Assembly: GCA_041644975.1 (NCBI GenBank)
Contig: JBAZQX010000004.1
Location: 9,189 to 73,188, forward strand
Source of the DNA: Candidatus Doudnabacteria bacterium
Lineage (GTDB): Bacteria > Patescibacteriota > JAQUNI01
Direction of reading: 5' to 3'
DNA length: 64,000 nt
In this document: in pieces, positions 9,341 to 53,679 of the stretch
Numbering within the stretch: position 1 is the first letter of the stretch
Layout of the letters: every line of letters begins with the position of its first letter
The notes under the pieces: model-generated
Databases searched by the model: none
What the model was told of the DNA's origin: nothing
Seen by the model: the letters and a program-made list of their open reading frames with translations, nothing else
Made by a program: the position numbers and the translations under genes

Positions 9341-9445
9341 AATTTAGCCAAGCTAGAGCTTTATCTAACGGCTAAGGGAGATAGGTGCCCTGCGCCTGTG
9401 GCTACGGAGCGCTTTACTCCCACCCCCTCCATCTCCCCCTCGGGC

Positions 9446-9632
9446 AGGGGGAGTGTAATTGGTGCTGGGCATCGTGAACGATGTTATAACCATATTTCAA
9501 CGACAAACCGAGTATATTTACATACCAAATTTAAGTCTACAAGCTTAAAATCATTATATCAAATTTTACCCTACCCTGCTACTCACTATTGTTTTGCTCT
9601 TTGTTATTTTACCCCACCCCGCTACTCACTAT
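9446..9632. repeat. Repeat family A copy (longest copy, plus an extra partial TTTTACCCCACCCCGCTACTCACTAT unit)
   Basis: cagggggagtgtaattggtgctgggcatcgtgaacg…gagtatatttacataccaaatttaagtctacaagctta…ttttaccctaccctgctactcactat. Confidence 0.8.
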
Positions 9633-9757
9633 ATTACTAAGGGGGGTAGGGAGTGCCAGATTGAAAATCTAACGAATAAAAGAATTCTTATAGTCGCTCC
9701 GCACAGAAGTGTTTTTATCTTGAAATATATTTTAGTCCGATTTTTAAAATCTCCTCT

Positions 9758-9861
9758 AATGTTAGAACTATATTACAACGACAAAATGAGTATATTTACA
9801 TACCAGATTTAAGTCCACAAGCTTAGTTTATCAGATTTTACCCTACCCCGCTACTCACTAT
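9758..9861. repeat. Repeat family A copy
   Basis: gttagaactatattacaacgacaaaatgagtatatttacataccagatttaagtccacaagcttagtttatcagattttaccctaccccgctactcactat. Confidence 0.8.
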
Positions 9862-9870
9862 TTCTTAAAA

Positions 9871-9901
9871 ACAAAAAGCTCCCATTTCTGGGAGTTTTTT
9901 T
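9871..9901. terminator. Bidirectional intrinsic terminator (ctccca-tttc-tgggag with flanking A-run and T-run)
   Basis: 6-bp GC-rich stem flanked by AAAAA and TTTTTTT. Confidence 0.5.
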
Positions 9902-10244
9902 GTTGGAATAGCAAGCTACTTAAAAGGAAAACAAGATTTCGTCGCTTGTTTCGCCCTTTGTTCGCTCCCTCAAACGAGGCTCTTGGTATGTCCGTAAACC
10001 AATGTTGCTTTTAACCGCACAAGGCGGACTTATTGCACAACACCGTTTTCAGCCAAAAGACCGAAAAATACCAACTCTCACTATTCCAATCAAATTATAT
10101 CAAATTTTTCTTATAGCTTCCAGTAACTCCTGCTGGCGTTTTTGAAGCGAGGCGTCAAAGATAATACGGTATTCAAAGTTCTTATTTGCTTGCTGGAACT
10201 CCTTAAAGCCGATTTCTTTTGCTTACCTCGCAACATAACTTTGA

Positions 10245-11705
10245 TTATTTGAACCAATTTACAATTTTTTTGAAGACCCTACCGATCTTTGCTGGAATGT
10301 CCGAAAAGGTCGATTTTATAAATGACAAAATTTTGTCATTTTTATTTATAGATACGCTACTTTCCTGACTACTGTTACTATTATCTTTATTTTCTTGTTC
10401 CGCACCCTGCTCATCCGTTGTCATTATCGTATTTTGCGAGCTTATGGCATTTTTTTCTTTCTCAACTACCACGGCTTTATCAGTGATTTCCAAACAACTA
10501 TTTCCAACTTCTTTAAAACCTTCATTACATTGCCATACATCTGCAGGGCTATCCGTTACTGGATGTGCGTTTGAGGGTATTTTAATACATTCAGTCTTAT
10601 TCAACGAAAGCGCATATCCCGCGCTACAAGTTTTTCTTTTTTCTGGGCTGTTTTGTTCTTGCGTTATCTTGGTTTGATTATTCGTTACTGGGGGGATCGC
10701 AAAGTCTAGAGGGGGAGAACTGTCTTCCTCTTCCTTTTTTAAAGTGTAATCAGAATCAATTTTTTCTAAACTTGTAATGTCGCAGGTTTCATCGTCATCT
10801 TGCAAAACAATCTTATCCCATCTATCAACATCAAAATCAATTCCTAAATTGACTACAATTCTATCATTTAAATATCTCTTAATAGAGGATGTATAGCATC
10901 CAGAATCATAAGTGATTAGGTAATATTGGTAATTATATTCACTTTTGATAATAGCCTGCCTCTCATCTGTGTTAAGTTCTTTTAAAATAAAATAAACATT
11001 ATTTTGTTTTTCAACACATTGATTATCATCATTTAAAGTATAATTACTATCACATTCACATTTTTTATTTAAAGAATTATAAGAAGAGTGAAGACCATAT
11101 TTAGTGAAGCAAGAGACGCATTCATTGCCACCGCCTATAGTTTTTTGCCTCAGAATATAGCCGTTTCGACACTCACAGACATCAGATAATGAATTGTATG
11201 TCGAATTATACCCAAGTTTATTGTGGCAATATTCGGTTGTATCTATGCATTTTGTTTTTCCAAAAAGGTCTTCACTAAAAATATACCCATAACGACACTT
11301 ACAAGTATCAGACAAAGAATCGTATGTCGAGCCGTATCCATATTTGTCTTTGCATTGCTGTTCTGTAGAAATACATTGTGTTCTTCCTACTGCATCTTTT
11401 CCCAAAGAATATCCATATCCGCACTCACAAGAATCATTTAAAGAGTTATATTTTGAGTTAAAGCCATATTTATCTTTACACATTTGGTCTGCCGATACAC
11501 AGCTAGCATTACCAAGAATATCTTTACCAAAAACATAACCACTCATACATTTACAGCTATCTGTTAAAGAATTATATGTCGCCCATATACCGTATTGAGA
11601 ACACTCACCGTAGCTTTGAGTGATTTTAATGTGAAATAAAAACAAACCTGACAAAATAAGCAAAACAGTTATGGCATAAAATTTATGATTGAATTTGAAA
11701 TCCAC
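10245..11705 (-). CDS. Secreted/surface Cys-rich tandem-repeat protein (about 7 copies of a roughly 44-aa C…YG.NS.YNSLSD.C.C..GY…G…C module) with Ser/Asn-rich C-terminal tail
   Basis: N-terminal TM/signal (FYAITVLLILSGLFLFHI). Repeats such as QCKDKYGYGSTYDSLSDTCKCRYGYIFSEDLFGKTKCIDTTEY. Confidence 0.6.
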   Translation of the reverse strand: MDFKFNHKFYAITVLLILSGLFLFHIKITQSYGECSQYGIWATYNSLTDSCKCMSGYVFGKDILGNASCVSADQMCKDKYGFNSKYNSLNDSCECGYGYSLGKDAVGRTQCISTEQQCKDKYGYGSTYDSLSDTCKCRYGYIFSEDLFGKTKCIDTTEYCHNKLGYNSTYNSLSDVCECRNGYILRQKTIGGGNECVSCFTKYGLHSSYNSLNKKCECDSNYTLNDDNQCVEKQNNVYFILKELNTDERQAIIKSEYNYQYYLITYDSGCYTSSIKRYLNDRIVVNLGIDFDVDRWDKIVLQDDDETCDITSLEKIDSDYTLKKEEEDSSPPLDFAIPPVTNNQTKITQEQNSPEKRKTCSAGYALSLNKTECIKIPSNAHPVTDSPADVWQCNEGFKEVGNSCLEITDKAVVVEKEKNAISSQNTIMTTDEQGAEQENKDNSNSSQESSVSINKNDKILSFIKSTFSDIPAKIGRVFKKIVNWFK

Positions 11706-11743: not shown

Positions 11744-11995
11744 CTAATAACGCAACTTATAACTTTTATAGGGGCTTGTATATCCTTTTGCGCCTGTGTA
11801 TGGGTTGTAATTTCCTTTCGTTGACCAGTTATCTAATCTGCTTCTGTTGGGGCTAGTCCTATAATATGGCTGGACATATGTGCCAGTGCTTTTTTTGTAA
11901 TAACTCCTAACTCTGATTGTGCGTGCTTCGGCAGAAAAGACAAACAAGCCAAAAACGAAAGACAGAATAATTGATAAAACAATAAGTTTTTTCAT
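11744..11995 (-). CDS. Small secreted Tyr/Lys-rich protein with signal peptide
   Basis: MKKLIVLSIILSFVFGLFVFSAEA signal, then Y-rich 60 aa. Confidence 0.5.
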   Translation of the reverse strand: MKKLIVLSIILSFVFGLFVFSAEARTIRVRSYYKKSTGTYVQPYYRTSPNRSRLDNWSTKGNYNPYTGAKGYTSPYKSYKLRY

Positions 11996-12011: not shown

Positions 12012-12362
12012 TTATTTTATAGGATATTTTTTAAAACATTCATCTTTGATTTGTTGATAGGCTTTCTTTAAATCATCTGCTCTATTTGAAGCCAATAAAC
12101 AACTACCATCTGTGCCGATTTCCCTATTATCTACTTTGCAATATTCATTCCATTGGTCGCGAGATGTAGTTTTAGCGTCTTCTAGACAAGCCTCAAGCAT
12201 TGATTTATTTAATTCTTTATCCACTTTTTCCTCAATTCGTATTAAGTCTTCTTTATTAGGAATATATATAACATAATGATAAAAAATAGCAAAACCTATC
12301 AATAATACGGCGGCTGCTAAAGTAGCTTTGAACCAATTAATCTTTTTTATTTTTTCTTTCAT
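12012..12362 (-). CDS. Small membrane-anchored protein; paralog of 8396-8794 (start taken at MKEKIKKINWF)
   Basis: Same TM + PN(K/Q) + coiled segment + Cys-containing C-terminal architecture. Confidence 0.5.
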   Translation of the reverse strand: MKEKIKKINWFKATLAAAVLLIGFAIFYHYVIYIPNKEDLIRIEEKVDKELNKSMLEACLEDAKTTSRDQWNEYCKVDNREIGTDGSCLLASNRADDLKKAYQQIKDECFKKYPIK

Positions 12363-12366
12363 AAAT

Positions 12367-13308
12367 TTAAGGCAAAGTTTCACACACAACGCCGTCTTTA
12401 TCTCGGTCTAGTTTGTGCACATCTCCCCTGCCTTGTGTTATGCAGTAATTATAACAGGCTTGAGCCTGTTTTTGTGTTGTGAAATCAGGGCAATTATAGG
12501 TATTACTACTGCAATTGCAAACTGTTTCCGTTGTAGTAGTGGTGGGTGCAGGCGTAGTTTGAATTGTGGGGCTAGTTTGGGCTTGGTTTGCTGAATTATC
12601 AGCTACGCAAGCATCATCAGCCCATAATCCTCGCTTATTCTTCTCTGCTTCTTTTTGAGCTTCTTTAAATTCTGATTGGTATTTATAGGGTGTGGAGTAA
12701 GTATATTCGTAAGCGTAGCCTTCGGCAATCATTAGTTTATTAAAGTTTGTCCCGTCTTCTAAAAAGACATATCTCAATAATCTACCATATTTGTCTCTTT
12801 CTCCTTGGGTTGGGTCGTTTTCTAAAATTACACTTTTGCCATTCAAAACTTCCTTGGCTTTATCGGAGGCTTCTTTACCAAAACATTCAACGGGTTTGCG
12901 AGGGTCAACGGTTTCGGGGGTGTTAATACCTATAAGCCTTAGGGTCTCTTTTGTCCCGTCCATATCAACTGTTACCGTATCCCCGTCAACAACTTTAATC
13001 ACCTTGTATAATTTCTGGGCTGATTGCCCCTCTGTTGCAGAATCTACACTTGGGGAGGTCTGTTGTGGTTCTGTCTGGCTGGCTTCATTTTGAGGCTCTT
13101 GGGTTGCGGATTCAACGGCTTGGGCTAGGGGCTGGTCTTGCTTTTCCTCCTGCGGCTCATTTATTGTCTGTTCTTGATTGGCGGTATCCTCAATCTTGGT
13201 TTCGCCAGTTTCTTTAGGATGTTGGCTAGTTTGAGTAGTCTCTGCACATCCTGCCAAAACAAAAAAACCTAGTAGGAGAATTGTCCATTTAACAAATTTG
13301 ATATTCAT
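12367..13308 (-). CDS. Thermonuclease (staphylococcal-nuclease/SNase fold) lipoprotein with C-terminal Excalibur Ca-binding domain
   Basis: Lipobox VLAGC. SNase motifs DGDTV, LRLIGINTPE, YGRLLRYV. C-terminal CPDFTTQKQAQACYNYC…LDRDKDGVVCE is the Excalibur signature. Thr/Gln-rich linkers. Confidence 0.8.
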   Translation of the reverse strand: MNIKFVKWTILLLGFFVLAGCAETTQTSQHPKETGETKIEDTANQEQTINEPQEEKQDQPLAQAVESATQEPQNEASQTEPQQTSPSVDSATEGQSAQKLYKVIKVVDGDTVTVDMDGTKETLRLIGINTPETVDPRKPVECFGKEASDKAKEVLNGKSVILENDPTQGERDKYGRLLRYVFLEDGTNFNKLMIAEGYAYEYTYSTPYKYQSEFKEAQKEAEKNKRGLWADDACVADNSANQAQTSPTIQTTPAPTTTTTETVCNCSSNTYNCPDFTTQKQAQACYNYCITQGRGDVHKLDRDKDGVVCETLP

Positions 13309-13373
13309 ATTCTTTTGGAATCTACATATTTTACCCCACCCCTCATTCACTTATATTTTTAGAAACAGGATTT

Positions 13374-15269
13374 TTATTTAACTTTTTCAGGAGTTTTAAA
13401 AATAAGCATTGTTGTTCCTATTTTTTTATAGAAATAATCTTTAATCCTATTGTATTTTTTGTTTTCGGGTAATTTATCATTAAAAACATTGTTTTGATAT
13501 TCAAAAATAGAAACGACGATATATGAATCAGTCGGAATCCATCCCCATTCAATATTGTAAGGCTCATATCCCTTCCCCAGATAATATTGCAATGGAACAT
13601 TAGTAAAAATATGAGCATAAATTTTATTTATATTATTATCCTTTACCCATTCTGCTAGTCTTTTTACATCCTGACCGCCCCAGTCATAATTTGAATCCGT
13701 TGCAATTTTATAACCATTATTAGTTCCTCCGGCAAAAGCGTTGTAATAACTCAAATAATATGGAAAAAAAACTATAGTTGATACTAAAATGACAATTGCC
13801 AAAAGAAAGAATAAAGATTTTGTTTTCAGGACGCGGAACAATTTTAAGTTCCAATGTAAATCAATCCCCCTCGCCGTTAATAGTATAACGGAAATAATTA
13901 CGGGCATAATATGTCTCAATCCAATTTGTAAGTTTGAAGATAGAGTAATTACCATATATAAATACGAGAATAACAAGAGCAAAAAAGATAATGGATTTTT
14001 CAAGAATGTTGATAATCTGGTTTTAATGTCTATTTTAGAAGATATAAATTTCCAAGTTGCTAAAGCTAGAGAAACGAAAATTAAGATAAGGGCACTAATG
14101 GACAATTTCGTTAAAAATAGAATCGGAAAATATAATGCTCCGGCTCCTTCTGAACCATAAACTCTACCCATAAAATATGTTTTTTGTAAGGCAGAGGACA
14201 TTCTTCCCCCAACCATTATTACGCCCAGTATATATTCTGCTATCCCTTTTGTTAGCGGATTGCTAATTACAAAACTTGATAATATTTCTACCCCTTGAGA
14301 TGGTAGTTCTTGCGGATATGTCTGCACTATTTGGGTTATCATTTCATCATTAGTCATATTGCGAACGTGAAGAGAATAAAAAATGGCAACAATAAAGAAT
14401 ACGGAAAGAATAAACGAAGAATAACGAATTAAAAATTTACCCACTTCTTTTCTGCTCTTTTGAACGAAAATTATAAAAATTAATCCCCCTAAAAACATTG
14501 CTGGAATAATAAGGACTGAAGAAAACTTTGCTAATAGCGCCAGCGAGGTGAACAACACCGAGAATAGAAACCAAGCTAAAATTTTACCTTTTTGTGCATA
14601 GTTTTTAAGATAAATTGCAAAACATACAATAGCTATTATTTGAAGTAGGGACGACATAAAGTCCATTATAACCAGAGAACCCATTGAAATAACAAATTGA
14701 GAAGAGACCATTAAAAAAATCCCTATCAATGAGGTTCTTTTGCTCCATATTTTTGTTAAGAAAATATAAAGCAGAAAAATAAAAAATCCATTAAACACAA
14801 TAACTGCTAATCTAGACCAAAAGGCAATATTGTCAGGATCATTATTTGGATTAAACAAAAAAAGTCTCCCCCAATCCCATTGGGCATTTCCAACCTCCAG
14901 CTTTTTCGGCATTATGTAGCTTTTAAAGGGGTAATCCCATCTTGTAAATTCTGAACCGAGATTAATTTTGTCTGAAATCTCCGGAAAAGTAGGTTTAATA
15001 AGCAACAGGGGTAAGCCGGCAATATCTTTAACAATAGGAGGATGTTCAGGATTTATGAAGTATCTACCCGTTTTTAGATAATAATATCCACTTGGAATAT
15101 GTGATAATTCATCGGATGTGATTGCGTCTCCTGTATATTTTAAATTTTTCCAATGAAATCCCTCAACGGAAAAAAGGGCAATTAAAATAAAGAAGGTTGT
15201 TAAAAGTATTGCTAATATGAAATTTGTTTTATTTTTAAGAAATGATTTTGGCTCTAATTTTTTAATCAT
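13374..15269 (-). CDS. GT-C membrane glycosyltransferase, family 39-like (PMT/ArnT-type); paralog of 43779-45530
   Basis: More than 10 TM helices. Conserved SHIPSGYYYLK…NPEHPPIVKDIAGLPLL and C-terminal SNYDWGGQDVKRLAEWV shared with the 43779 paralog. Confidence 0.6.
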   Translation of the reverse strand: MIKKLEPKSFLKNKTNFILAILLTTFFILIALFSVEGFHWKNLKYTGDAITSDELSHIPSGYYYLKTGRYFINPEHPPIVKDIAGLPLLLIKPTFPEISDKINLGSEFTRWDYPFKSYIMPKKLEVGNAQWDWGRLFLFNPNNDPDNIAFWSRLAVIVFNGFFIFLLYIFLTKIWSKRTSLIGIFLMVSSQFVISMGSLVIMDFMSSLLQIIAIVCFAIYLKNYAQKGKILAWFLFSVLFTSLALLAKFSSVLIIPAMFLGGLIFIIFVQKSRKEVGKFLIRYSSFILSVFFIVAIFYSLHVRNMTNDEMITQIVQTYPQELPSQGVEILSSFVISNPLTKGIAEYILGVIMVGGRMSSALQKTYFMGRVYGSEGAGALYFPILFLTKLSISALILIFVSLALATWKFISSKIDIKTRLSTFLKNPLSFLLLLFSYLYMVITLSSNLQIGLRHIMPVIISVILLTARGIDLHWNLKLFRVLKTKSLFFLLAIVILVSTIVFFPYYLSYYNAFAGGTNNGYKIATDSNYDWGGQDVKRLAEWVKDNNINKIYAHIFTNVPLQYYLGKGYEPYNIEWGWIPTDSYIVVSIFEYQNNVFNDKLPENKKYNRIKDYFYKKIGTTMLIFKTPEKVK

Positions 15270-15520
15270 AAAATTAATTTCAGTAGATAATTATTATTTT
15301 GTAAAATGCAATCTTTTCATATTTTTAAATTATTTTTCAAGCATCACTATTTAACCAGAAACACGAAGCTCCCCGCCAGCGATAGCCTTGCGGCTACCCA
15401 TATCCCTTTCGAGATATGACCGACTAAGGTGCTCTGAACGAGGAGCTTGATGCCTTAGTCGGTTTTATGCCATACCTCATAGCAAAACTATCAGGGTTAG
15501 GCAATTTAATTTTCAAAATA

Positions 15521-18060: not shown

Positions 18061-20295
18061 ATGCAAGAATTACAAACCATTACAATTAAAGAGTATCTGG
18101 CACGCAAAGGCGTTGCCTTTCGTGAGAGCGGCAAAGAGCTTATCACCCACTGCCTTTTTAACGGCTGTGATGAGAATAGCAAAACTAACGAAGCTCATCT
18201 TTATTTTGACGCAGAAACAGGGCAATTCAACTGCAAAAAGTGCGGCGAAAAAGGCAACCTCATAACCCTTGCTAAACATCTTGGCGATAGAATAAATGAT
18301 ATTGCCCTTAATCCAATAGCTCCCATTAAAAATTCACAAAAATCCACGAAATTTGACGCAGAGCTGGTTGAAACCTGTCATCAAGCACTTTCAGTCAATA
18401 TCCGCCAGTATTTGAACGCACGGGGCATCACAGACCCCATTATAGACACATACAAGCTTGGTTGGGGCAAATTCTACGGCAAATGGTGGATTACTATTCC
18501 TATTCAGGATATTGATGGAAATTTTGTTTTTCTCAAATTACGGCAAGACCCAGAAGATACAAATAATCCAGATAAATATAAATTTTATCCTGCTGGGAGT
18601 AGCGCAACTATCTATGGATGGAAAATGCTGAAAAATAACAAAGGCACCATTGTAATCTGCGAAGGTGAGTTTGACCAATTAGTGTTGTTACAAAATGCTA
18701 TTCCCGCTATCACTTCCACGGCTGGCGTTGGAACTTTCAAAAAAGAGTGGATTGAATACTTGAAAAAATTGGAAAAAATTTATATTTGCTTTGATAAAGA
18801 TGAAGCTGGTGAGAAAGGAGCAGAGCGGCTCATTAAACTTTTATCTGAACATTTATCTGATACTGCTATTTACAAAATTACGCTCCCAGAACGAATGGTT
18901 GACGGCAAAGATATAACCGATTATTTCCTAAGATACAACGGCAATGTGGATGAATTGATTTACAAATTAGCAAAAGAATATCCAGAGCGAATTGATACCT
19001 CGCAGTTCAAGCCGCTATCCTCGCAGGATTTGGTTGAAATACTTGGATTGACGATAAAGCAGGATGATGAAAATAAAATCGTAACCTTCCTTTGCGAGTT
19101 ATCGGCATATACGGAAAACGCTCAATTCAACATCAGCTTTAACGCACCATCATCTACGGGTAAAAGCTATATCCCCACCGAGATTGCTCGGTTATTCCCA
19201 GAAGAAGATGTAATGGAGCTTGCCTATTGCAGTCCTACGGCATTTTTTCACGATGTCGGCGAATGGAACAAAGATATGAAAGGATATGTCGTGGATTTGT
19301 CTCGCAAAATTTTGATTTTTCTTGACCAACCACATACTTTACTTCTTCAACATCTCCGTCCGTTGCTCTCGCACGATAAAAAGGAGATTTCGGTGAAAAT
19401 TACTGATAAGACGCAGAAGTTTGGATTGAAGACCAAAAATATCCTACTCAAAGGATACCCCGCAGTGATTTTCTGCACGGCAGGATTGTTGATTAACGAG
19501 CAGGAAGCAACACGATTTCTCCTGTTAAGCCCAGAGATTAACCAAGAGAAAATCAGGCAAGGGATTTTGGAGAGCATTAAAAAAGAAGCAGACGCCGAGA
19601 GCTATAAGGGCTGGCTGGATGAAAACCCCGAACGAAAGCTACTTAAAGAGCGGATACGGGCAATAAAACTGGAAGGTATCCGTGAAATAAAAATTGCAAG
19701 TTATCAAAAGGTTGTTGATAGATTTTTGAGCGAAAATAAGGTGCTCAAGCCCCGACACCAGCGAGACATTAAACGCCTTGTCTCAATTATAAAATCCTTT
19801 GCCTTAATCAATCTCTGGTGGCGGGAAAAAAACGGCACAACCATTACCGCCAATGAGGATGACATTGAACAGGCATTTAAGATTTGGGACGCTATCTGCA
19901 TAAGCCAAGAGCTTAGTCTGCCACCGTATATCTACAATCTCTACCAAGAAGTTATCTTGAAGGCGTGGAATGACAAAAATAGCAACAGAAGCGAGGCAAC
20001 GGGACTGCTCGGCTTATCACGGCAGGAACTACTGCAAAAGCACTTTGAGGTCTATGGGCGGATGTTGGACACAAACCAGCTACGCCAGCAGATTTTGCCA
20101 ATGCTGGAGATGGCGGGGCTTATCGTGCAAGAGGCAGACCAAAACGACAAACGAAAAATGTTGATTTCCCCTACCGCACTAACCACTAAATCTCCGAACC
20201 AAAACAATAGTGAGAACGGGGGTGGGGTGAGCACCAACGAGGAAAACAATAGTGAAACGCAGGGTGGGGTAACTCCAAACTTAGGAATTTTCTGA
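18061..20295 (+). CDS. DNA primase (CHC2 zinc finger + TOPRIM) fused to a C-terminal P-loop NTPase-like domain (phage/plasmid primase, P4-alpha-like architecture)
   Basis: CHC2 ribbon HCLFNGCDENSKTNEAHLYFDAETGQFNCKKCGEKG. TOPRIM GTIVICEGEFDQ … CFDKDEAGEKGAERL. Walker-A-like NAPSSTGKSY in the C-terminal half. Confidence 0.75.
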   Translation: MQELQTITIKEYLARKGVAFRESGKELITHCLFNGCDENSKTNEAHLYFDAETGQFNCKKCGEKGNLITLAKHLGDRINDIALNPIAPIKNSQKSTKFDAELVETCHQALSVNIRQYLNARGITDPIIDTYKLGWGKFYGKWWITIPIQDIDGNFVFLKLRQDPEDTNNPDKYKFYPAGSSATIYGWKMLKNNKGTIVICEGEFDQLVLLQNAIPAITSTAGVGTFKKEWIEYLKKLEKIYICFDKDEAGEKGAERLIKLLSEHLSDTAIYKITLPERMVDGKDITDYFLRYNGNVDELIYKLAKEYPERIDTSQFKPLSSQDLVEILGLTIKQDDENKIVTFLCELSAYTENAQFNISFNAPSSTGKSYIPTEIARLFPEEDVMELAYCSPTAFFHDVGEWNKDMKGYVVDLSRKILIFLDQPHTLLLQHLRPLLSHDKKEISVKITDKTQKFGLKTKNILLKGYPAVIFCTAGLLINEQEATRFLLLSPEINQEKIRQGILESIKKEADAESYKGWLDENPERKLLKERIRAIKLEGIREIKIASYQKVVDRFLSENKVLKPRHQRDIKRLVSIIKSFALINLWWREKNGTTITANEDDIEQAFKIWDAICISQELSLPPYIYNLYQEVILKAWNDKNSNRSEATGLLGLSRQELLQKHFEVYGRMLDTNQLRQQILPMLEMAGLIVQEADQNDKRKMLISPTALTTKSPNQNNSENGGGVSTNEENNSETQGGVTPNLGIF

Positions 20296-21704: not shown

Positions 21705-23402
21705 ATGACAAAAATTACACAAATTACACAAAAAAACATAAAAAATAAATATTTTCTTTATGCCCGCAAGTCATCAGAAAGCGAAGATAGACAGGTGCAG
21801 TCCATTGATGACCAAGTAAATCGGCTTAAACAACTTGCCAAAGATTTAAGTTTGGATATTAAAAAAATCTATACCGAATCAAAAACAGCCAAGAAGCCAA
21901 ACAACCGCCCCCTATTTGATGAAATGATACAGAGAATTGAAAATGGCGAAGCGGATGGAATTTTATGCTGGCACTTAAACAGATTGACACGCAACCCAAT
22001 TGATAGCGGTAAATTAAGTTGGCTTTTGCAACAAGGAGTAATCAAATCCATTCAAACCATAGAACGACAATATCTACCCGATGACAATGTTCTACTATTT
22101 AATGTTGAGACTGGTCAGGCTAATCAGTATCTTTTGGATTTAAGCCGTGATACTAAACGGGGACTTCTCAAAAAACTGAATACGGGCTGGCAAAATGGCA
22201 TCGCCCCATTGGGTTATCTGAATGACAAAGAAAACAAAACTATTATCAAAGACCCAGAGCGTTTTAATCTCGTCCGCAAAATGTGGGATTTAATGCTCAC
22301 GGGCAATTATACGCCGCCAAAGATTTTAGATATTGCTAATAAGGAGTGGGGTTTTAGAACACGAAAATTCAAAAGGATTGGCGGCTGTCCTCTGTCCAGA
22401 AGCGGGATTTATAAAATTTTTACAAGTTTGTTCTATGCGGGGGTTATTGAAAATAAAGGGGTGCAATATGAGGGGAAACACGAGCCGATAATTACCCTTG
22501 AAGAATACGACCGAGTGCAAATGTTGCTTGGGAGAAAAGGCAAGCCAAGACCCAAAAAGCACAAATTTGCCTTTACTGGATTTATTCGGTGCGGGGAGTG
22601 CGGCTGTCTTTATACTGCTGAAACAAAACAAAAACTAATCAAAAGCACTGGCGAAATCAAAAAATATACTTATTATCATTGCACCAGAAAAAAAAGAGAT
22701 ATTAACTGCACCCAAAGGAAATTTATTAGAGAAAACAAATTAGAACTCCAAATTGAAAAAGAATTAGAAAAATACACTATTCTCCCAGAATTTTTACATT
22801 GGGCTTTAGAGGGTCTGAATAAAAAAAATGACACCGAAATTGAAGACCGAACAAAAATTTATGAAATGCAACATAAAACTTTAACTGAAACTCAAAAAGG
22901 ATTGGACGAGCTTACTAAAATGAGATACCGCCAGTTAATTGATGATGAAACTTTTGTCAAAGAGCGTAATGAATTACAAACCAAAATCACCCAGCTTAAA
23001 GAAAAATTAAGAGAAACCGAAAGCCGAGCCGAGCGATGGCTGGAGCTAACAGAGAAGACTTTTAATTTTGCAACATATGCTAGAAAAGCATTTTTGATAG
23101 GAGGGTTAGAACTAAAGAAAGAAATACTGATGACATTAGGGAAAAATGCGATAATAAAGGACAAAAAGCTCTATATTGAGCCGAATGAATGGCTACAACC
23201 AATCAAAAATGGCTATCCTGCCTTAGAAAAAGAATATCTAAGGTTAGAACCAGCCAAAATGCGCTTAAATAAAACAAAAACAGAGGCTTTAACCTCTGTT
23301 CGTGCACGGTGGCTGGGGAGGCAGGATTCGAACCTGCGAATGGCGGCTTCAAAGGCCGCTGCCTTACCACTTGGCTACTCCCCAAAATGGAATCAGGAAT
23401 AA
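21705..23402 (+). CDS. Large serine recombinase (resolvase/invertase catalytic domain + recombinase domain + zinc ribbon + coiled coil)
   Basis: YARKSS…DDQ catalytic region, GILCWHLNRLTR, CGECGCLYTAE…YYHCTRKK zinc ribbon. The last roughly 30 codons are antisense translation of tRNA-Gln. Confidence 0.85.
   Translation: MTKITQITQKNIKNKYFLYARKSSESEDRQVQSIDDQVNRLKQLAKDLSLDIKKIYTESKTAKKPNNRPLFDEMIQRIENGEADGILCWHLNRLTRNPIDSGKLSWLLQQGVIKSIQTIERQYLPDDNVLLFNVETGQANQYLLDLSRDTKRGLLKKLNTGWQNGIAPLGYLNDKENKTIIKDPERFNLVRKMWDLMLTGNYTPPKILDIANKEWGFRTRKFKRIGGCPLSRSGIYKIFTSLFYAGVIENKGVQYEGKHEPIITLEEYDRVQMLLGRKGKPRPKKHKFAFTGFIRCGECGCLYTAETKQKLIKSTGEIKKYTYYHCTRKKRDINCTQRKFIRENKLELQIEKELEKYTILPEFLHWALEGLNKKNDTEIEDRTKIYEMQHKTLTETQKGLDELTKMRYRQLIDDETFVKERNELQTKITQLKEKLRETESRAERWLELTEKTFNFATYARKAFLIGGLELKKEILMTLGKNAIIKDKKLYIEPNEWLQPIKNGYPALEKEYLRLEPAKMRLNKTKTEALTSVRARWLGRQDSNLRMAASKAAALPLGYSPKWNQE
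23310..23384 (-). tRNA. tRNA-Gln (anticodon UUG), CCA encoded
   Basis: rc = TGGGGAGTAGCCAAGTGGTAAGGCAGCGGCCTTTGAAGCCGCCATTCGCAGGTTCGAATCCTGCCTCCCCAGCCA. 7-bp acceptor with U1-A72, anticodon stem CGGCC/GGCCG, loop CUUUGAA, T-arm GCAGG-TTCGAAT-CCTGC. Confidence 0.85.
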
Positions 23403-23471
23403 GGAATTATGAATTAGGAAGATAAAATGAAATTCATTATTCATGATTCACAATTCCTGATTCATAATTCC

Positions 23472-41975: not shown

Positions 41976-43595
41976 ATGCACACAAAAAGTAAAATCACCA
42001 TAGTTTTATTTTTATTGATTTTGATTCTCGCTGGCATCTTCCGTTTTTGGCAAATCCGGGATCTCCCTGGCGGACTCTACTCGGATGAAGGCGCGAACGG
42101 GTTGGATGTTTTGGATATCTTATCCGGCAAGAACCGCGATGTCTTTTATGAGCGCAACTACGGTCGGGAGGGATTATTCTTCTACCTGCTCGCTCTCTCG
42201 GTTAAAATTTTTGGCATTGGTGTCTGGCAAATGAAAATCGTCTCGGGGATTTTAGGGATCCTCACGATTATTGGCCTTTATCTCTTGACCAAAACACTTT
42301 TTAACCGCACGATCGCGCTTTTAGCCTCTCTATTTGCCGCGGTGTCTATTCCTTATACTTTTTTGAGCCGCGTGGCTTTCCGCGCCAATATGCTGCCTTT
42401 TGTCTCGGTTTTTCTTTTTTATTTCTGTGTTAAGACCCTTAAAGATAAAAAGGATGAATACTTTTATTCTTTTTTAGCCGGCATCTTCTTAGCCTTAGGA
42501 TTTTATACCTATATCTCCTTCCGCATTGTCCCCTTCTGCATCATCGCTCTCATCATCCTATTTGAAATTATTTCCCGCCGCACTGGCAACCCAAAAGGAT
42601 TCATTGTCCCCCACCGTAAACAAATTTTCACCGCTCTTATCGCTTTTCTGATTGCCATCGCGCCTCTTGCCTTCTATTTCTACCAACACCCATCTTCTTT
42701 CTTCGGCCGCGCCAATGATGTTTCTATTTTGAATCCCAATCTAGCGCATGGCCCTTTTTATTATCTCCTCCGCAATATTGGCATTACCGCAATTATGTTT
42801 AATGTTTATGGCGATGCCAATTGGCGCCATAACCTTTCGGAAGCGCCATTTTTTGACCCCGTGACTGGCGTTCTTTTTTTAGTCGGCTTGATCATCGCAG
42901 CGACTATATTTTTAAAAACAGGCTTAAAAGTTTTAAAACATAAAGACATCGCTTTGCGCGAAACCTTTGCCGGCTATCTTCTTATTTTTGGCTGGTTTTT
43001 CAGCCTCCTTGTTCCGATGATGGCGACAGAAGAAGCAATCCCGCATTTCTTGCGCAGCATTGGTATTATCCCTGTCGTGTTTATTTTTCCCGCTTTGGGT
43101 CTGCGCGCCCTTTTCTTACGCATCCGCTACCGACCAGTGATGCTCGGCTTTCTGCTCCTTCTTTCAGTTGTCTTTGTGGTCAACTATAATCTCTGGCTAT
43201 ATTTTCAAGTAGCTAAAAATGCTTACGGATATTATACCTCCTATTATGGCGATTTAACTTTGGCAAGTCGCTACATCAACGAAATTAATGCGAGTAATGC
43301 TAAATTCCCTACCATTAACAGCGCCAACACTTTCCTTGTGCTTGATGACAAAGCTGACCGCACAGTCCGCTTCTTGACTGCGCCCGCGAATCCTTATATT
43401 TTAATACCAATAAACGCAGAGATAAAAACGACCTATCCCGAGAGCGCAAGAATTATCTTTCCCTCTTTAAGTTTCAATCGCTTGGCTTCCTTCCAGAACA
43501 TTTTCCCGGAAGCGAGATTAATTTATGAAGAATACAATCGGTTTGGGGAAAAAGCATTTGAAGTATACACAATAATTTTTAATTCTAAATTTTAA
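41976..43595 (+). CDS. GT-C membrane glycosyltransferase, family 39/83-like (ArnT/PMT-type)
   Basis: LYSDEGANGLDVLDILSG (DE motif in first extracytoplasmic loop), more than 10 TM. Confidence 0.65.
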   Translation: MHTKSKITIVLFLLILILAGIFRFWQIRDLPGGLYSDEGANGLDVLDILSGKNRDVFYERNYGREGLFFYLLALSVKIFGIGVWQMKIVSGILGILTIIGLYLLTKTLFNRTIALLASLFAAVSIPYTFLSRVAFRANMLPFVSVFLFYFCVKTLKDKKDEYFYSFLAGIFLALGFYTYISFRIVPFCIIALIILFEIISRRTGNPKGFIVPHRKQIFTALIAFLIAIAPLAFYFYQHPSSFFGRANDVSILNPNLAHGPFYYLLRNIGITAIMFNVYGDANWRHNLSEAPFFDPVTGVLFLVGLIIAATIFLKTGLKVLKHKDIALRETFAGYLLIFGWFFSLLVPMMATEEAIPHFLRSIGIIPVVFIFPALGLRALFLRIRYRPVMLGFLLLLSVVFVVNYNLWLYFQVAKNAYGYYTSYYGDLTLASRYINEINASNAKFPTINSANTFLVLDDKADRTVRFLTAPANPYILIPINAEIKTTYPESARIIFPSLSFNRLASFQNIFPEARLIYEEYNRFGEKAFEVYTIIFNSKF

Positions 43596-43778: not shown

Positions 43779-45530
43779 ATGTCTAAACTGACTAAAATTC
43801 TCCCCCCTCTCTTAATTATCATAATGGTCTTGATCTCTTTCTTCTCCGTCCGCCAGGATTCCGCGATTATGGACGAGGTCGCCCATATCCCTGCTGGCTA
43901 TTCCTACCTTAAATATCAAGATTACCGCTTAAACCCCGAGCATCCCCCTTTAGCGAAAATGCTGGCTGCTCTTCCTCTCCTTTTCTTGCACCTCCAATTC
44001 CCCTTAAATCATCCCTCTTGGACAACCGATGTGAATGGTCAATGGGAAGCGGGATATCAATTTTTATACCACCTTGGCAATGACGCGGATAAAATACTCC
44101 TCTGGTCGCGCCTGCCGATCATCGCTCTTTTAATTTTGCTGGGGATCTATGTTTGGAAATGGGCGAAAGAACTTCTGGGAGCAAAATGGGCGCTTGCGGT
44201 TCTGTTTTTATATACTTTCTCTCCCACGATCATTGCCCATAGCCACTATGTGACCACTGATTTGGCCGCGACATGCTTTATCTTTATCGCCTTTTATTAT
44301 TTTGTTCATTATTTAAAAAAACCGAGCCTTAAGAATACTCTCTTGGCTGGTCTTGCTCTGGGTTTAGCCGAGGTCGCTAAATTTTCGGCGGTTCTTCTTT
44401 TCCCGTGTTTTGTTCTTCTTGCCCTTGTCTCTCTCCTTTTGAACAGGCCTCCTCAAACCTCGTGGCTCAAGCAAACAAAAAACCATATCGGCAAATTTAT
44501 TCTGATTTGTTTGATTGCGCTCGGAGTAATCCTCATTGTCTATCAACCCGCGGTCTGGGCTTTCAATTTAGAAAAACAACAAGAGTTAATCCGCGGTTCT
44601 ATCGGGCCGGAAAAAATTGAAAATATTGTGCTCGCTATAAGTAAAATCCCAGGCGCCCAAGGCCTTGCTCAATACATCTTGGGTATTGTGATGGTCTTTG
44701 CCCGCGTGGGAGGCGGCAACACCAATTACTTCTTAGGTCAGGTTTCTAATCAAGGGTGGTGGTATTATTTCCCAACCTGTTTTTTTCTAAAAGAAACAAT
44801 TTCGGTCTTAATCTTAACGGGATTAGCTTTGCTTTTTGTGATTCGTAAATTTGCCACCAATCTCGTAAAAGATCGTTCGCGCAAATGGCTTCCTTGGCTT
44901 AGGGAATACGCGCTTTGTCATCTGGCGGAAATCTCAATGGTAGTTTTTATCATTGTTTATGGGGTGGTCAGTATGAAGGGCAAACTGAACTTAGGTGTCC
45001 GCCACATTATGGTCCTTTTCCCCTTTATCTACATTTTAATCATTAAAGAATTTAAACGGCGTACAGCAGAAACCGCCTACAAAAAACTTTTCACAGGAAT
45101 ATTAATTGTTCTCCTTGTTTGGGTTGGCGTGGAAGTCACGATAAATTATCCTTCGTACCTTGCTTATTATAGCGAACTCACTGGCGGCTCAAAGAATGGT
45201 TACAAATTTATCACGGATTCCAATCTGGACTGGGGGCAGGATTTAAGACGTATGGCGGAATGGGTGAACGCTAACCCTGATATCCAAAAGATTAAAGTGG
45301 ATTATTTTGGCGGCGGAGTACCCTCTTATTATCTTGGCGATAAATATCAAGAATGGCATTCGCAGAATGGACCAACAACGGGTTGGATTGCTGTCAGCAC
45401 CAACTATTTTTCTGAAAGTATTTATCGCAAAGATTCCACCCTTGCCACCTCTTATTACTATCTGGAATTAAGAAAGCCCGAAAAAATCTTCGGGCATTCC
45501 ATATTTGTGTATTATATACCAGAAAAGTAA
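43779..45530 (+). CDS. GT-C membrane glycosyltransferase, family 39-like (PMT_2-type)
   Basis: MDEVAHIPAGYSYLK…NPEHPPLAKMLAALPLL, C-terminal SNLDWGQDLRRMAEWV. Paralog of 13374-15269. Confidence 0.65.
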   Translation: MSKLTKILPPLLIIIMVLISFFSVRQDSAIMDEVAHIPAGYSYLKYQDYRLNPEHPPLAKMLAALPLLFLHLQFPLNHPSWTTDVNGQWEAGYQFLYHLGNDADKILLWSRLPIIALLILLGIYVWKWAKELLGAKWALAVLFLYTFSPTIIAHSHYVTTDLAATCFIFIAFYYFVHYLKKPSLKNTLLAGLALGLAEVAKFSAVLLFPCFVLLALVSLLLNRPPQTSWLKQTKNHIGKFILICLIALGVILIVYQPAVWAFNLEKQQELIRGSIGPEKIENIVLAISKIPGAQGLAQYILGIVMVFARVGGGNTNYFLGQVSNQGWWYYFPTCFFLKETISVLILTGLALLFVIRKFATNLVKDRSRKWLPWLREYALCHLAEISMVVFIIVYGVVSMKGKLNLGVRHIMVLFPFIYILIIKEFKRRTAETAYKKLFTGILIVLLVWVGVEVTINYPSYLAYYSELTGGSKNGYKFITDSNLDWGQDLRRMAEWVNANPDIQKIKVDYFGGGVPSYYLGDKYQEWHSQNGPTTGWIAVSTNYFSESIYRKDSTLATSYYYLELRKPEKIFGHSIFVYYIPEK

Positions 45531-53553: not shown

Positions 53554-53629
53554 AATGTTGGGAATCAGGAATAAGGAATTATGAATTAGGAATTATGAAG
53601 CAGGAATTAAATATTTGTCTCTAATTGCT

Positions 53630-53679
53630 CTACTCACTCCTTTTCAAAAATTTCGTAATTTGTAGGACTCCTTATTCCT
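53630..53679 (-). promoter_or_regulatory. Conserved about 50-bp block (rc AGGAATAAGGAGTCCTACAAATTACGAAATTTTTGAAAAGGAGTGAGTAG) upstream of folD; near-identical copy upstream of mreB (58472-58521)
   Basis: Two copies in the same position/orientation relative to two minus-strand operon starts. Contains TTGAAA -35-like hexamer. Confidence 0.5.

Follow-up and report, generated by a model that had tools for sequence, protein, structure and literature searches.

We find that the minus-strand open reading frame (ORF) at 10245..11705 of a 64,000-nucleotide stretch of Candidatus Doudnabacteria DNA (contig JBAZQX010000004.1 of assembly GCA_041644975.1, positions 9,189 to 73,188; hereafter the window) encodes a modular, Cys-rich surface protein that is built partly from EGF-type hairpins. 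The reading we favor, to which we give a probability of about 0.55, is that of a Sec-exported envelope protein, cross-linked by disulfides and tethered by its C-terminus, which exposes an EGF-like stalk and a new beta domain. In this model a signal peptide would be cut between TQS and YGEC, and the mature chain would fold outside the membrane into five modules with two disulfides each, C1-C2 and C3-C4, the second hairpin of each module being the EGF-type CxCxxGY...C hairpin. The modules would lead into a compact beta domain that carries a C270-C308 disulfide and an Asp-rich loop that may bind Ca2+ or another ligand. This ectodomain would be joined, through a disordered linker, a two-hairpin mini-domain, and a spacer of low complexity, to an amphipathic helix rich in W, F, and K that may lie within the outer leaflet of the cytoplasmic membrane, as the C-terminal anchor of PBP5/DacA does; in other members of the family, an SLH, SH3b, or PG_binding_1 wall-binding domain would take the place of the helix. 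Held by its C-terminus, the protein would present a rigid Cys-rich stalk and the beta domain outward to bind a conserved partner.

The ORF starts at a GTG codon and yields 486 residues, exactly as delimited by a first-pass annotation made from the sequence alone. Its product (hereafter the query) is identical to NCBI protein MFA4880440.1, deposited as 'hypothetical protein WC650_02350' of Candidatus Doudnabacteria bacterium. Four housekeeping proteins encoded in the window (MreB, DnaB, TypA, and CysS) are likewise identical to proteins of the same Candidatus Doudnabacteria metagenome-assembled genome at NCBI, which fixes the organism. NCBI places it in the phylum Candidatus Doudnaibacteriota, and Doudnabacteria are by convention counted within Patescibacteria, or the Candidate Phyla Radiation (CPR). 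Among 5.8 billion proteins searched, 242 are relatives at E<=1e-3, and the strongest of these span E=0 to ~1e-88. Where these relatives are named at all, they are called 'hypothetical' or take the name of an accessory domain ('SH3 domain-containing', 'S-layer homology domain-containing'). Searches of NCBIfam, PHROGs, and, with a single sequence, the PDB gave no meaningful match to the whole protein, and our search of the literature on cysteine-rich, EGF, or surface proteins of Patescibacteria, CPR, or Parcubacteria found nothing on this Cys-repeat family. The first-pass annotation had proposed that the family is undescribed, and this was borne out, as no Pfam, NCBIfam, or PHROG model covers the protein. 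The family is real but unnamed, with its members labelled hypothetical in all sources.

We located the family at 32 loci in GTDB species representatives, a count limited by the search pattern. These loci fall in Paceibacterota/Parcubacteria, Doudna-, Levy-, Staskawicz-, Nomura-, Moranii-, Falkow-, and Peribacteria, and Kazan. A few records bear the titles Gammaproteobacteria, Saccharibacteria, or Tepidimicrobium (titles as deposited, unverified), and almost every named genome record with a family member belongs to Patescibacteria. Identity to the query is 34-57% for members from Patescibacteria lineages with different names. The ectodomain is highly conserved even between distant lineages while its occurrence is patchy, which points to a conserved ligand and horizontal spread and not to a rapidly adapting host-specific adhesin; such conservation is unlike that of the usual fast-evolving host-specific adhesin. 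A separate search for homologous proteins with a profile of the repeat module returned 2 short fragments from 22 candidates, the word index used being ill-suited to a 42-residue profile.

Some distant members (P0200, P0207, P0210, P0211, and P0213) are translated with Trp at positions where the family has a conserved Gly. The gene for P0210 (locus L040, 294-1763) contains 34 in-frame TGA codons and a single GGN codon, in a locus of 20.5% GC. When it is read with translation table 25, in which TGA encodes Gly, the motifs YGY, SGY, and NMGTD are restored. Bacteria that read UGA as glycine, a code known from Gracilibacteria and Absconditabacteria, are thus among the carriers of the family. The conserved glycines are evidently under selection. 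The C-terminal regions of these high-Trp members look SLH-like by eye.

The protein contains 26 Cys, with an even number in every module, and 20 of them lie within five consecutive modules with the spacing C-x15/16-C-x-C-x11-16-C. All five are encoded on the minus strand: module 1 at 11481..11612 (residues 32-75, the Cys module proper being 35-75; C35, C51, C53, C69), module 2 at 11355..11480 (residues 76-117; C76, C93, C95, C111), module 3 at 11229..11354 (residues 118-159; C118, C135, C137, C153), module 4 at 11112..11228 (residues 160-198; C160, C177, C179, C196), and module 5 at 11010..11111 (residues 199-232; C199, C216, C218, C230). Module 1 has a conserved signature of its own, YGECSxYG..A.YD....CKCMSGYVFGKD, and module 3 has a counterpart in only ~37% of homologues. 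Module 5 is short, has a CxCxxNYx7C spacing near that of the EGF signature, and hardly varies between family members. The number of modules varies from 2 to 6 among members, and the four-Cys pattern holds across 376 family units as C-x13-16-C-x-C-x10-16-C. In the AlphaFold2 (AF2) model, every module consists of a short helix and then two beta hairpins.

The five query modules are 38-53% identical to one another in amino acids, and their alignment scores of 53-140 far exceed those of shuffled units (-9 +/- 10, maximum 29), so the repeat is not a chance feature. At the nucleotide level the identity is only 56-70%, and Tandem Repeats Finder reported no repeat in the DNA, which together indicate an ancient duplication and no recent tandem array. 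The first-pass annotation had described seven tandem modules with a 44-residue period. We count five modules with four Cys each, the period is 41-42 residues in modules 1-3 and then 39 and 34, and the supposed sixth and seventh copies are 2-Cys hairpins (C360-C373 and C393-C404) that lie ~125 residues beyond the array. The four invariant Cys and the core motif that it quoted do match the consensus of 120 family units, CxxxYGxxSxYxxLxxxCECxSGY...G...C, in which all four Cys are invariant. It had also placed a Ser/Asn/Gln-rich tail after the repeats; both the repeats and an S/N/Q/E-rich stretch (~409-457) exist, but a conserved beta domain, which that annotation overlooked, lies between them and the protein ends in an amphipathic helix at 458-486.

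EGF domains are overwhelmingly eukaryotic, and the first-pass annotation saw in the repeats a resemblance neither to EGF nor to known adhesin repeats. The ectodomain is indeed unrelated to known adhesin repeats, but the CxCxxGY...C half of the module is EGF-like, both by the Pfam model cEGF (PF12662) and by a profile search of the PDB. The query itself scores 20.1 bits with cEGF (E=5.8e-4), below the gathering cut-off of 26.6, with the best match at residues 176-197 in module 4. For all Pfam domain counts we used two homologue sets, one of 94 members and one of 64 diverse members, and cEGF was matched in 25/94 and 13/64 of these (best 2.2e-8), with other EGF models matched occasionally. When all PDB sequences were searched with a 42-position module profile, 14 matches at E<=10 were obtained, with marginal E-values. 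Thirteen of the 14 are proteins known to carry EGF domains, the exception being 6ncl P7. The best is factor Xa EGF2 at E=9.8e-4, followed by thrombomodulin, Pfs28/Pvs25, MIC6, protein Z, MAp19, and fibrillin, and nearly all of the best stretches fall within profile positions 15-41, which make up the CxCxxGY...C hairpin. With the full structural model, Foldseek found no PDB match at E<=1e-3; the top weak matches were the EGF-repeat proteins LRP2, NELL, and uromodulin, along with TNFR1 and R-spondin (Fu1-Fu2).

The PROSITE EGF_2 signature is C-x-C-x2-[GP]-[FYW]-x(4,8)-C. Compared with it, CxCxxGY is nearly invariant in the modules, and the final loop has 7 residues in module 5 (with N for G) and 11-12 in modules 1-4. 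We regard the second hairpin of each module as a divergent EGF-type, cEGF-like hairpin. Like EGF domains, the modules share a CxCxxG[YF]...C beta hairpin closed by a disulfide, which in the query is predicted, and are arranged in tandem as EGF arrays are in disulfide-stiffened extracellular stalks. They differ in having four Cys and two predicted disulfides instead of the six Cys and three disulfides (1-3, 2-4, 5-6) of EGF, in a loop of 10-16 residues in most modules, in a bacterial host, and in an N-terminal half, C-x3-YG-x2-S-x-Y-x2-L (a short helix and hairpin), which has no EGF counterpart. Because of the four Cys, the distinct N-terminal half, and the long loop, the whole module falls outside the definition of EGF. 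The first-pass annotation had held that a repeat profile matching a described domain family would refute its proposal. This is borne out by half: such matches do occur, but they are marginal and cover only half of the module, which has four Cys and not six.

TNFR-type, furin-like, and TIL repeats are likewise small modules with little hydrophobic core, and weak Pfam matches to TIL (28/94 members) and RANK_CRD_2 (3/94) were found. These matches are confined to the CxC...GY segment, the number and spacing of Cys differ, and none is significant for the query. We rejected a trypsin-inhibitor (TIL) reading, given the partial matches to CxC..GY and the differing Cys count.

The modules are followed by an all-beta domain of ~88 residues (10746..11009, minus strand, residues 233-320) with the family signature KQNNVYF...NLGxDFDxDxxDKIVLQDD..C, also written NLGTDFDxDxxDKIVLQDD. 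It is Cys-poor, with the single pair C270/C308, and is the best-conserved part of the protein, with a mean top-residue frequency of 0.79 compared to 0.62-0.73 for the modules. The AF2 model, built from an 86-sequence alignment, is confident, with a predicted local distance difference test score (pLDDT) >90 over residues 40-330 and 360-408, and shows residues 236-316 as all-beta; residues 226-330, modelled separately, reach a mean pLDDT of 88 and a predicted template modelling score (pTM) of 0.77. We found no Pfam match to this domain, nor any match of fold at E<=1e-3. Run with the domain alone, phmmer found only 108 clusters among 1.84 billion representatives of clusters at 50% identity, and in nearly all full-length matches it starts ~130-260 residues from the N-terminus, after repeats, the exceptions looking like fragments. 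As it is restricted to these 108 clusters and is placed after the repeats, the domain is specific to the family. The domain has an Asp-rich loop at 287-297. The invariant N286, G288, D290, and D297 and the Asp residues near them are grouped in one loop, which could be a site for Ca2+, a carbohydrate, or another ligand.

Among the 64 diverse members, C270 and C308 are both present in 53, both absent in 11, and never found singly. The eleven that lack both include the high-Trp members sampled above (P0200, P0207, P0210, P0211, and P0213). That the two Cys are always kept or lost together is strong comparative evidence for a C270-C308 disulfide. Within the modules, the four Cys would likewise pair as C1-C2 and C3-C4 to give two disulfides each. 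Disulfide formation is plausible in this lineage: an MdbA-like thiol-disulfide oxidoreductase with a conserved CxxC, often beside VKOR, is reported to be enriched in CPR bacteria (Meheust et al., 10.1101/335083). No MdbA-like oxidoreductase gene was found in the 64-kb window.

At its N-terminus, the protein has a predicted Sec-type signal peptide (11613..11705, minus strand, residues 1-31), consisting of a basic n-region MDFKFNHKF, an h-region YAITVLLILSGLFLF, and a c-region HIKITQS. Lysines occupy positions 4 and 8, the hydrophobic stretch runs from 10 to 24, and T29-Q30-S31 stand ahead of Y32. In an alignment of the homologues, an AxA motif (VKA, TFA, ASA, TQA, VYA, and others) closes the hydrophobic stretch immediately before the invariant YGEC. 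The features of a signal peptidase I (SPase I) substrate, a basic n-region, a hydrophobic h-region, and small residues at -3 and -1, are all present as judged by the alignment, and the AF2 model has a helix at residues 7-25 and low pLDDT at 29-32. In all likelihood, the hydrophobic segment is a Sec signal peptide that is removed by a cut between S31 and Y32. A mature chain produced in this way would begin with YGECSQYG and would give the N-terminal semi-tryptic peptide YGECSQYGIWATYNSLTDSCK. Export of a Cys-rich modular protein, as the first-pass annotation had proposed, is supported. Its claim that an N-terminal transmembrane segment anchors the protein did not hold up, since AxA before YGEC is the mark of a cleaved Sec signal and the envelope-binding modules of the family are C-terminal instead.

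The region downstream of the beta domain is variable across the family. In the query it comprises, all on the minus strand, a Pro/polar linker (10641..10745, residues 321-355; predicted disordered, pLDDT <50 at 334-353, and variable in homologues), a two-hairpin mini-domain found in a subfamily only (10482..10640, residues 356-408; C360-C373 CSAGYALSLNKTEC and C393-C404 CNEGFKEVGNSC; pLDDT 91-96), an S/N/Q/E-rich low-complexity spacer (10335..10481, residues 409-457; pLDDT <50 at 414-458), and C-terminal amphipathic helices (10248..10334, residues 458-486; AF2 helices at 458-467 and 470-485) that end in ...AKIGRVFKKIVNWFK. In other members, known wall-binding domains are found in this region: SH3_3 in 9/94 and 7/64, SLH in 1/94 and 9/64, and PG_binding_1 once. 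In the sequences inspected, SLH, SH3b, and PG_binding_1 sit after the beta domain at the C-terminal end, and because relatives have known wall-binding domains at this position, it is most likely the C-terminus that lies nearest the envelope. Additional EGF-like hairpins occur in some members, as does either of two unnamed C-terminal domains without a Pfam match, which may be further envelope-binding modules. These two domains replace the amphipathic tail in P0020, P0145, P0006, and P0031 and in P0024, P0026, P0038, and P0049; one is a duplicated ~55-residue unit (...GEAWYVYPxDxKxYYLGRPxDAFxIMRxLGLGIT...), and the other ends in ...SIYEINSFDRESYITGAxLE.

The query has none of the recognized wall-binding domains SLH, SH3b, or PG_binding_1 in Pfam searches and no LPXTG in its sequence, and its C-terminus is amphipathic and not a hydrophobic helix. 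The last 14 residues have the highest hydrophobic moment of the protein (0.84), and in 62.5% of homologues the moment of the tail lies >2 standard deviations above the internal mean. A tail of 12-18 residues rich in W/F/Y and K/R is present in 78/120 homologues (for example, ...WYKKVFGFFSNLFK and ...KKLKFW; ...KIGRVFKKIVNWFK in the query). The same criteria select 5/476 neighboring ORFs of the related loci, all weak and none convincing, and with so few we make no claim of a general sorting signal. We propose that the C-terminal helix of the query is an in-plane membrane anchor. E. coli PBP5/DacA and PBP6 have C-terminal amphipathic-helix membrane anchors, and the query resembles them in being exported with a predicted cleaved signal peptide and in its short aromatic and basic amphipathic end helix, which lies at the extreme C-terminus (AF2 helix 470-485), as in PBP5. 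It differs in having no sequence homology to them and a more cationic tail, and membrane binding is a prediction in its case. The overall plan of a signal peptide, an N-terminal functional region, a Pro-rich or low-complexity spacer, and a C-terminal envelope-binding module is also that of non-covalently wall-anchored proteins of Gram-positive bacteria. Some family members share the SLH, SH3b, or PG_binding_1 domains of these proteins, whereas the query, lacking these domains and LPXTG, ends in its amphipathic helix.

Several observations weigh against a C-terminally tethered, ligand-binding envelope protein. The c-region of the query is TQS and no textbook AxA, and the amphipathic tail could serve a purpose other than self-anchoring. 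Tethering by the C-terminus places the best-conserved domain on the membrane-proximal side of the stalk, which is unusual for a ligand-binding head, and no fold match ties that domain to an activity. In Foldseek it resembles only small beta barrels (CspA, the Mpa OB domain, EF-P, SilF) at E>0.4 and TM-scores of 0.3-0.5, faint resemblances that are no evidence of relationship. A conserved ectodomain at 32 patchy loci is also more in keeping with an accessory gene that spreads horizontally than with an adhesin adapted to a lineage. Some of these points suit the topology of the first-pass annotation, a type II membrane protein with an uncleaved signal anchor, a membrane-proximal Cys stalk, and a distal ligand-binding beta domain and C-terminal parts, much like a fibre with a knob: the missing AxA would be explained, and the best-conserved domain would lie at the far end, as it does in many fibres. 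Adenovirus fibres, whose shaft is likewise an extended beta-hairpin array followed by a compact beta domain, were matched at E ~4e-5 in a Foldseek search of the BFVD viral library. These matches have TM-scores of ~0.1, root-mean-square deviations >20 Å, and ~10% identity, and the fibre is a trimeric beta spiral without disulfides; we rejected kinship of fold, as the likeness is one of repeated-hairpin texture. With AxA standing exactly before the invariant YGEC in almost all homologues, and SLH, SH3b, and PG_binding_1 at the C-terminus in the sequences inspected, we consider the type II arrangement unlikely. Slightly likelier, though still improbable, is that the protein is a Patescibacteria-specific surface fibre that serves in episymbiont attachment. 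In this proposal a conserved glycan or Ca2+-dependent ligand on the cells of a partner would be bound by the EGF-like stalk and the Asp-rich beta domain, the gene would spread on integrative elements together with NPYTG and Excalibur proteins (described below), and the W/F/K helix would be a lineage-typical membrane tether. As to the adhesin or host-attachment role put forward by the first-pass annotation, it is only a guess.

The tail can also be read as a weapon, in which case the protein would be a released effector whose cationic W/F/K helix inserts into the membrane of a host or competitor, for attachment or in an antimicrobial-like manner, with the Cys part giving protease resistance. 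The tail does combine positive charge, aromatic residues, and strong amphipathicity, Patescibacteria are commonly seen as episymbionts, and the gene lies in an accessory region of low GC with genes for secreted proteins around it, one of them a nuclease. We nonetheless judge an effector to be rather improbable, since other members exchange the tail for the wall binders SLH, SH3b, and PG_binding_1, which would hold the protein to the producer, and no toxin or enzyme domain was detected in the query with Pfam or NCBIfam. A further question is whether the gene is the cargo of an integrative element and serves that element, by receptor masking or superinfection exclusion or by surface modification. 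The Cys-repeat gene lies in a block at ~6-18 kb of 31-37% GC, compared to 40-46% elsewhere in the window, and this block, possibly an integrated element that carries the gene, adjoins a Toprim primase (18061-20295), a large serine recombinase (21705-23402; phrog_95, 3.6e-72) whose 3' end overlaps a tRNA-Gln (23310-23384, minus strand), and DUF5659 and HTH_17 proteins. The remaining window is ordinary chromosome (DnaX, CysS, Dus, DnaB, RecR, aminoacyl-tRNA synthetases, GreA, FolD, PBP2, MreBC, RseP). A homologous recombinase (45% identity) occurs ~3.5 kb from the family gene in locus L017, DUF5659 and small helical proteins recur in 5 loci, and the family is patchy, yet its members keep 34-57% identity to the query across lineages. 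We found no att-type direct repeat of the tRNA-Gln elsewhere in the window, most homologous loci have no recombinase within 6 kb, and no relative was found in IMG/VR viral contigs or, by tblastn, in GenBank phages, nor was there a PHROG match, so a phage structural protein has no support. A role in the service of an element seems even less likely than an effector, and it concerns how the gene spreads without replacing the molecular mechanism. Finally, a repeat arising by chance or composition, or an ORF that is no gene, could appeal to the silence of Tandem Repeats Finder on the DNA, but this is ruled out for practical purposes by the 242 homologues, the module scores far above shuffled units, and the in-frame TGA codons that encode the conserved Gly positions in the UGA=Gly member, and the confident AF2 model speaks against it as well.

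Patescibacteria account for a large part of bacterial diversity; most of them have not been cultured, and they are believed to live attached to other cells. To our knowledge, few of their surface proteins have a known function. Our analysis defines a compact, unnamed exported family that unites EGF-type hairpins, a rarity among bacteria, with a beta domain that is predicted with confidence and for which no relatives in sequence or fold could be detected. The envelope anchors of the family are interchangeable. The family is a concrete target for structure, localization, and binding studies in the few cultivable CPR systems. If the surface-fibre reading is true, it would be among the few bacterial uses of EGF-type modules and would bring together a new fold and a new binding function; should the protein serve only as a structural component of the envelope, the result is a useful annotation and no surprise.

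Five closely spaced genes on the minus strand run in the same direction and end with the Cys-repeat gene, and all five encode exported or membrane proteins. The first is a PMT_2-like (GT-C) polytopic protein of 631 residues (13374..15269; PMT_2 3.7e-4, sub-threshold). It is followed by an exported staphylococcal-type nuclease with a C-terminal Excalibur Ca-binding domain (12367..13350; SNase 3.3e-27, Excalibur 4.5e-5), which contains a lipobox-like LAGC and lies upstream of the Cys-repeat gene in the block, and by a small membrane-anchored protein with four Cys (12012..12389, assigned by sequence only). Directly upstream of the Cys-repeat gene is an 83-residue secreted Tyr/Lys-rich protein with the motif GNYNPYTG (11744..11995; phrog_29674, 1e-16). 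The first terminator-like hairpin downstream is at 9879..9894 on the minus strand, with none on that strand between 15269 and 10245.

At the level of Pfam domains, we found no conservation of the neighborhood across 34 related loci. The most frequent neighbor of the family is the NPYTG protein (~80 residues, Tyr/Lys/Pro-rich; STGTYVxPYYRTSPNxxxxDNxSTKGNYNPYTGKKG), which stands beside the family gene in 10 other loci (9 distinct, as L004 = L005), usually just upstream and co-directional. Copies are found in L004 (7035-7289), L011 (5717-5977), and L016 (1390-1626), and also in L025, L031, and L014. In L015 (4630-5463) and L039 (4844-5695), the NPYTG segment is fused to CxxG[FY]x6-8C hairpin repeats that resemble those of the query, WQCNEGFKEVGNSC. 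Excalibur or SNase genes adjoin the family gene in 7-8 loci, and small stand-alone Excalibur genes are found near it in L004 (7734-7979), L015 (7158-7433), L025, L027, and L031; these neighbors may hint at a Ca2+-related extracellular module. Candidates for PMT_2-like (GT-C) glycosyltransferases occur in the window at 13374-15269 (minus), 41976-43595 (plus), and 43779-45530 (plus), and O-glycosylation of S/T-rich spacers is conceivable.

A LOOT RNA (Rfam RF03000) is found at 15381-15503 on the minus strand, with 88.9 bits against a gathering score of 46.4 and the full model covered. It lies 112 nucleotides upstream of the first gene of the five-gene block on the same strand and may act as a 5' regulatory element or be a small RNA in its own right. 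The ~900 nucleotides downstream of the Cys-repeat ORF (9341-10244) have no called gene and contain the terminator-like hairpin (9894-9879, minus); Rfam at a permissive threshold gave chance-level matches only in this gap. It holds three copies of about TAGTGAGTAGCGGGGTAGGGTAAAAT and, twice, a ~65-nucleotide segment (ttaagcttgtRgacttaaatYtggtatgtaaatatactc...). A dispersed, intergenic element of ~32 nucleotides, GGAATCAGGAATAAGGAATTATGAATTAGGAA, occurs at 23389-23420 and, on the plus strand, at 53561-53592, with parts of it at 53675 (minus), 58513 (minus), and 25123 (plus).

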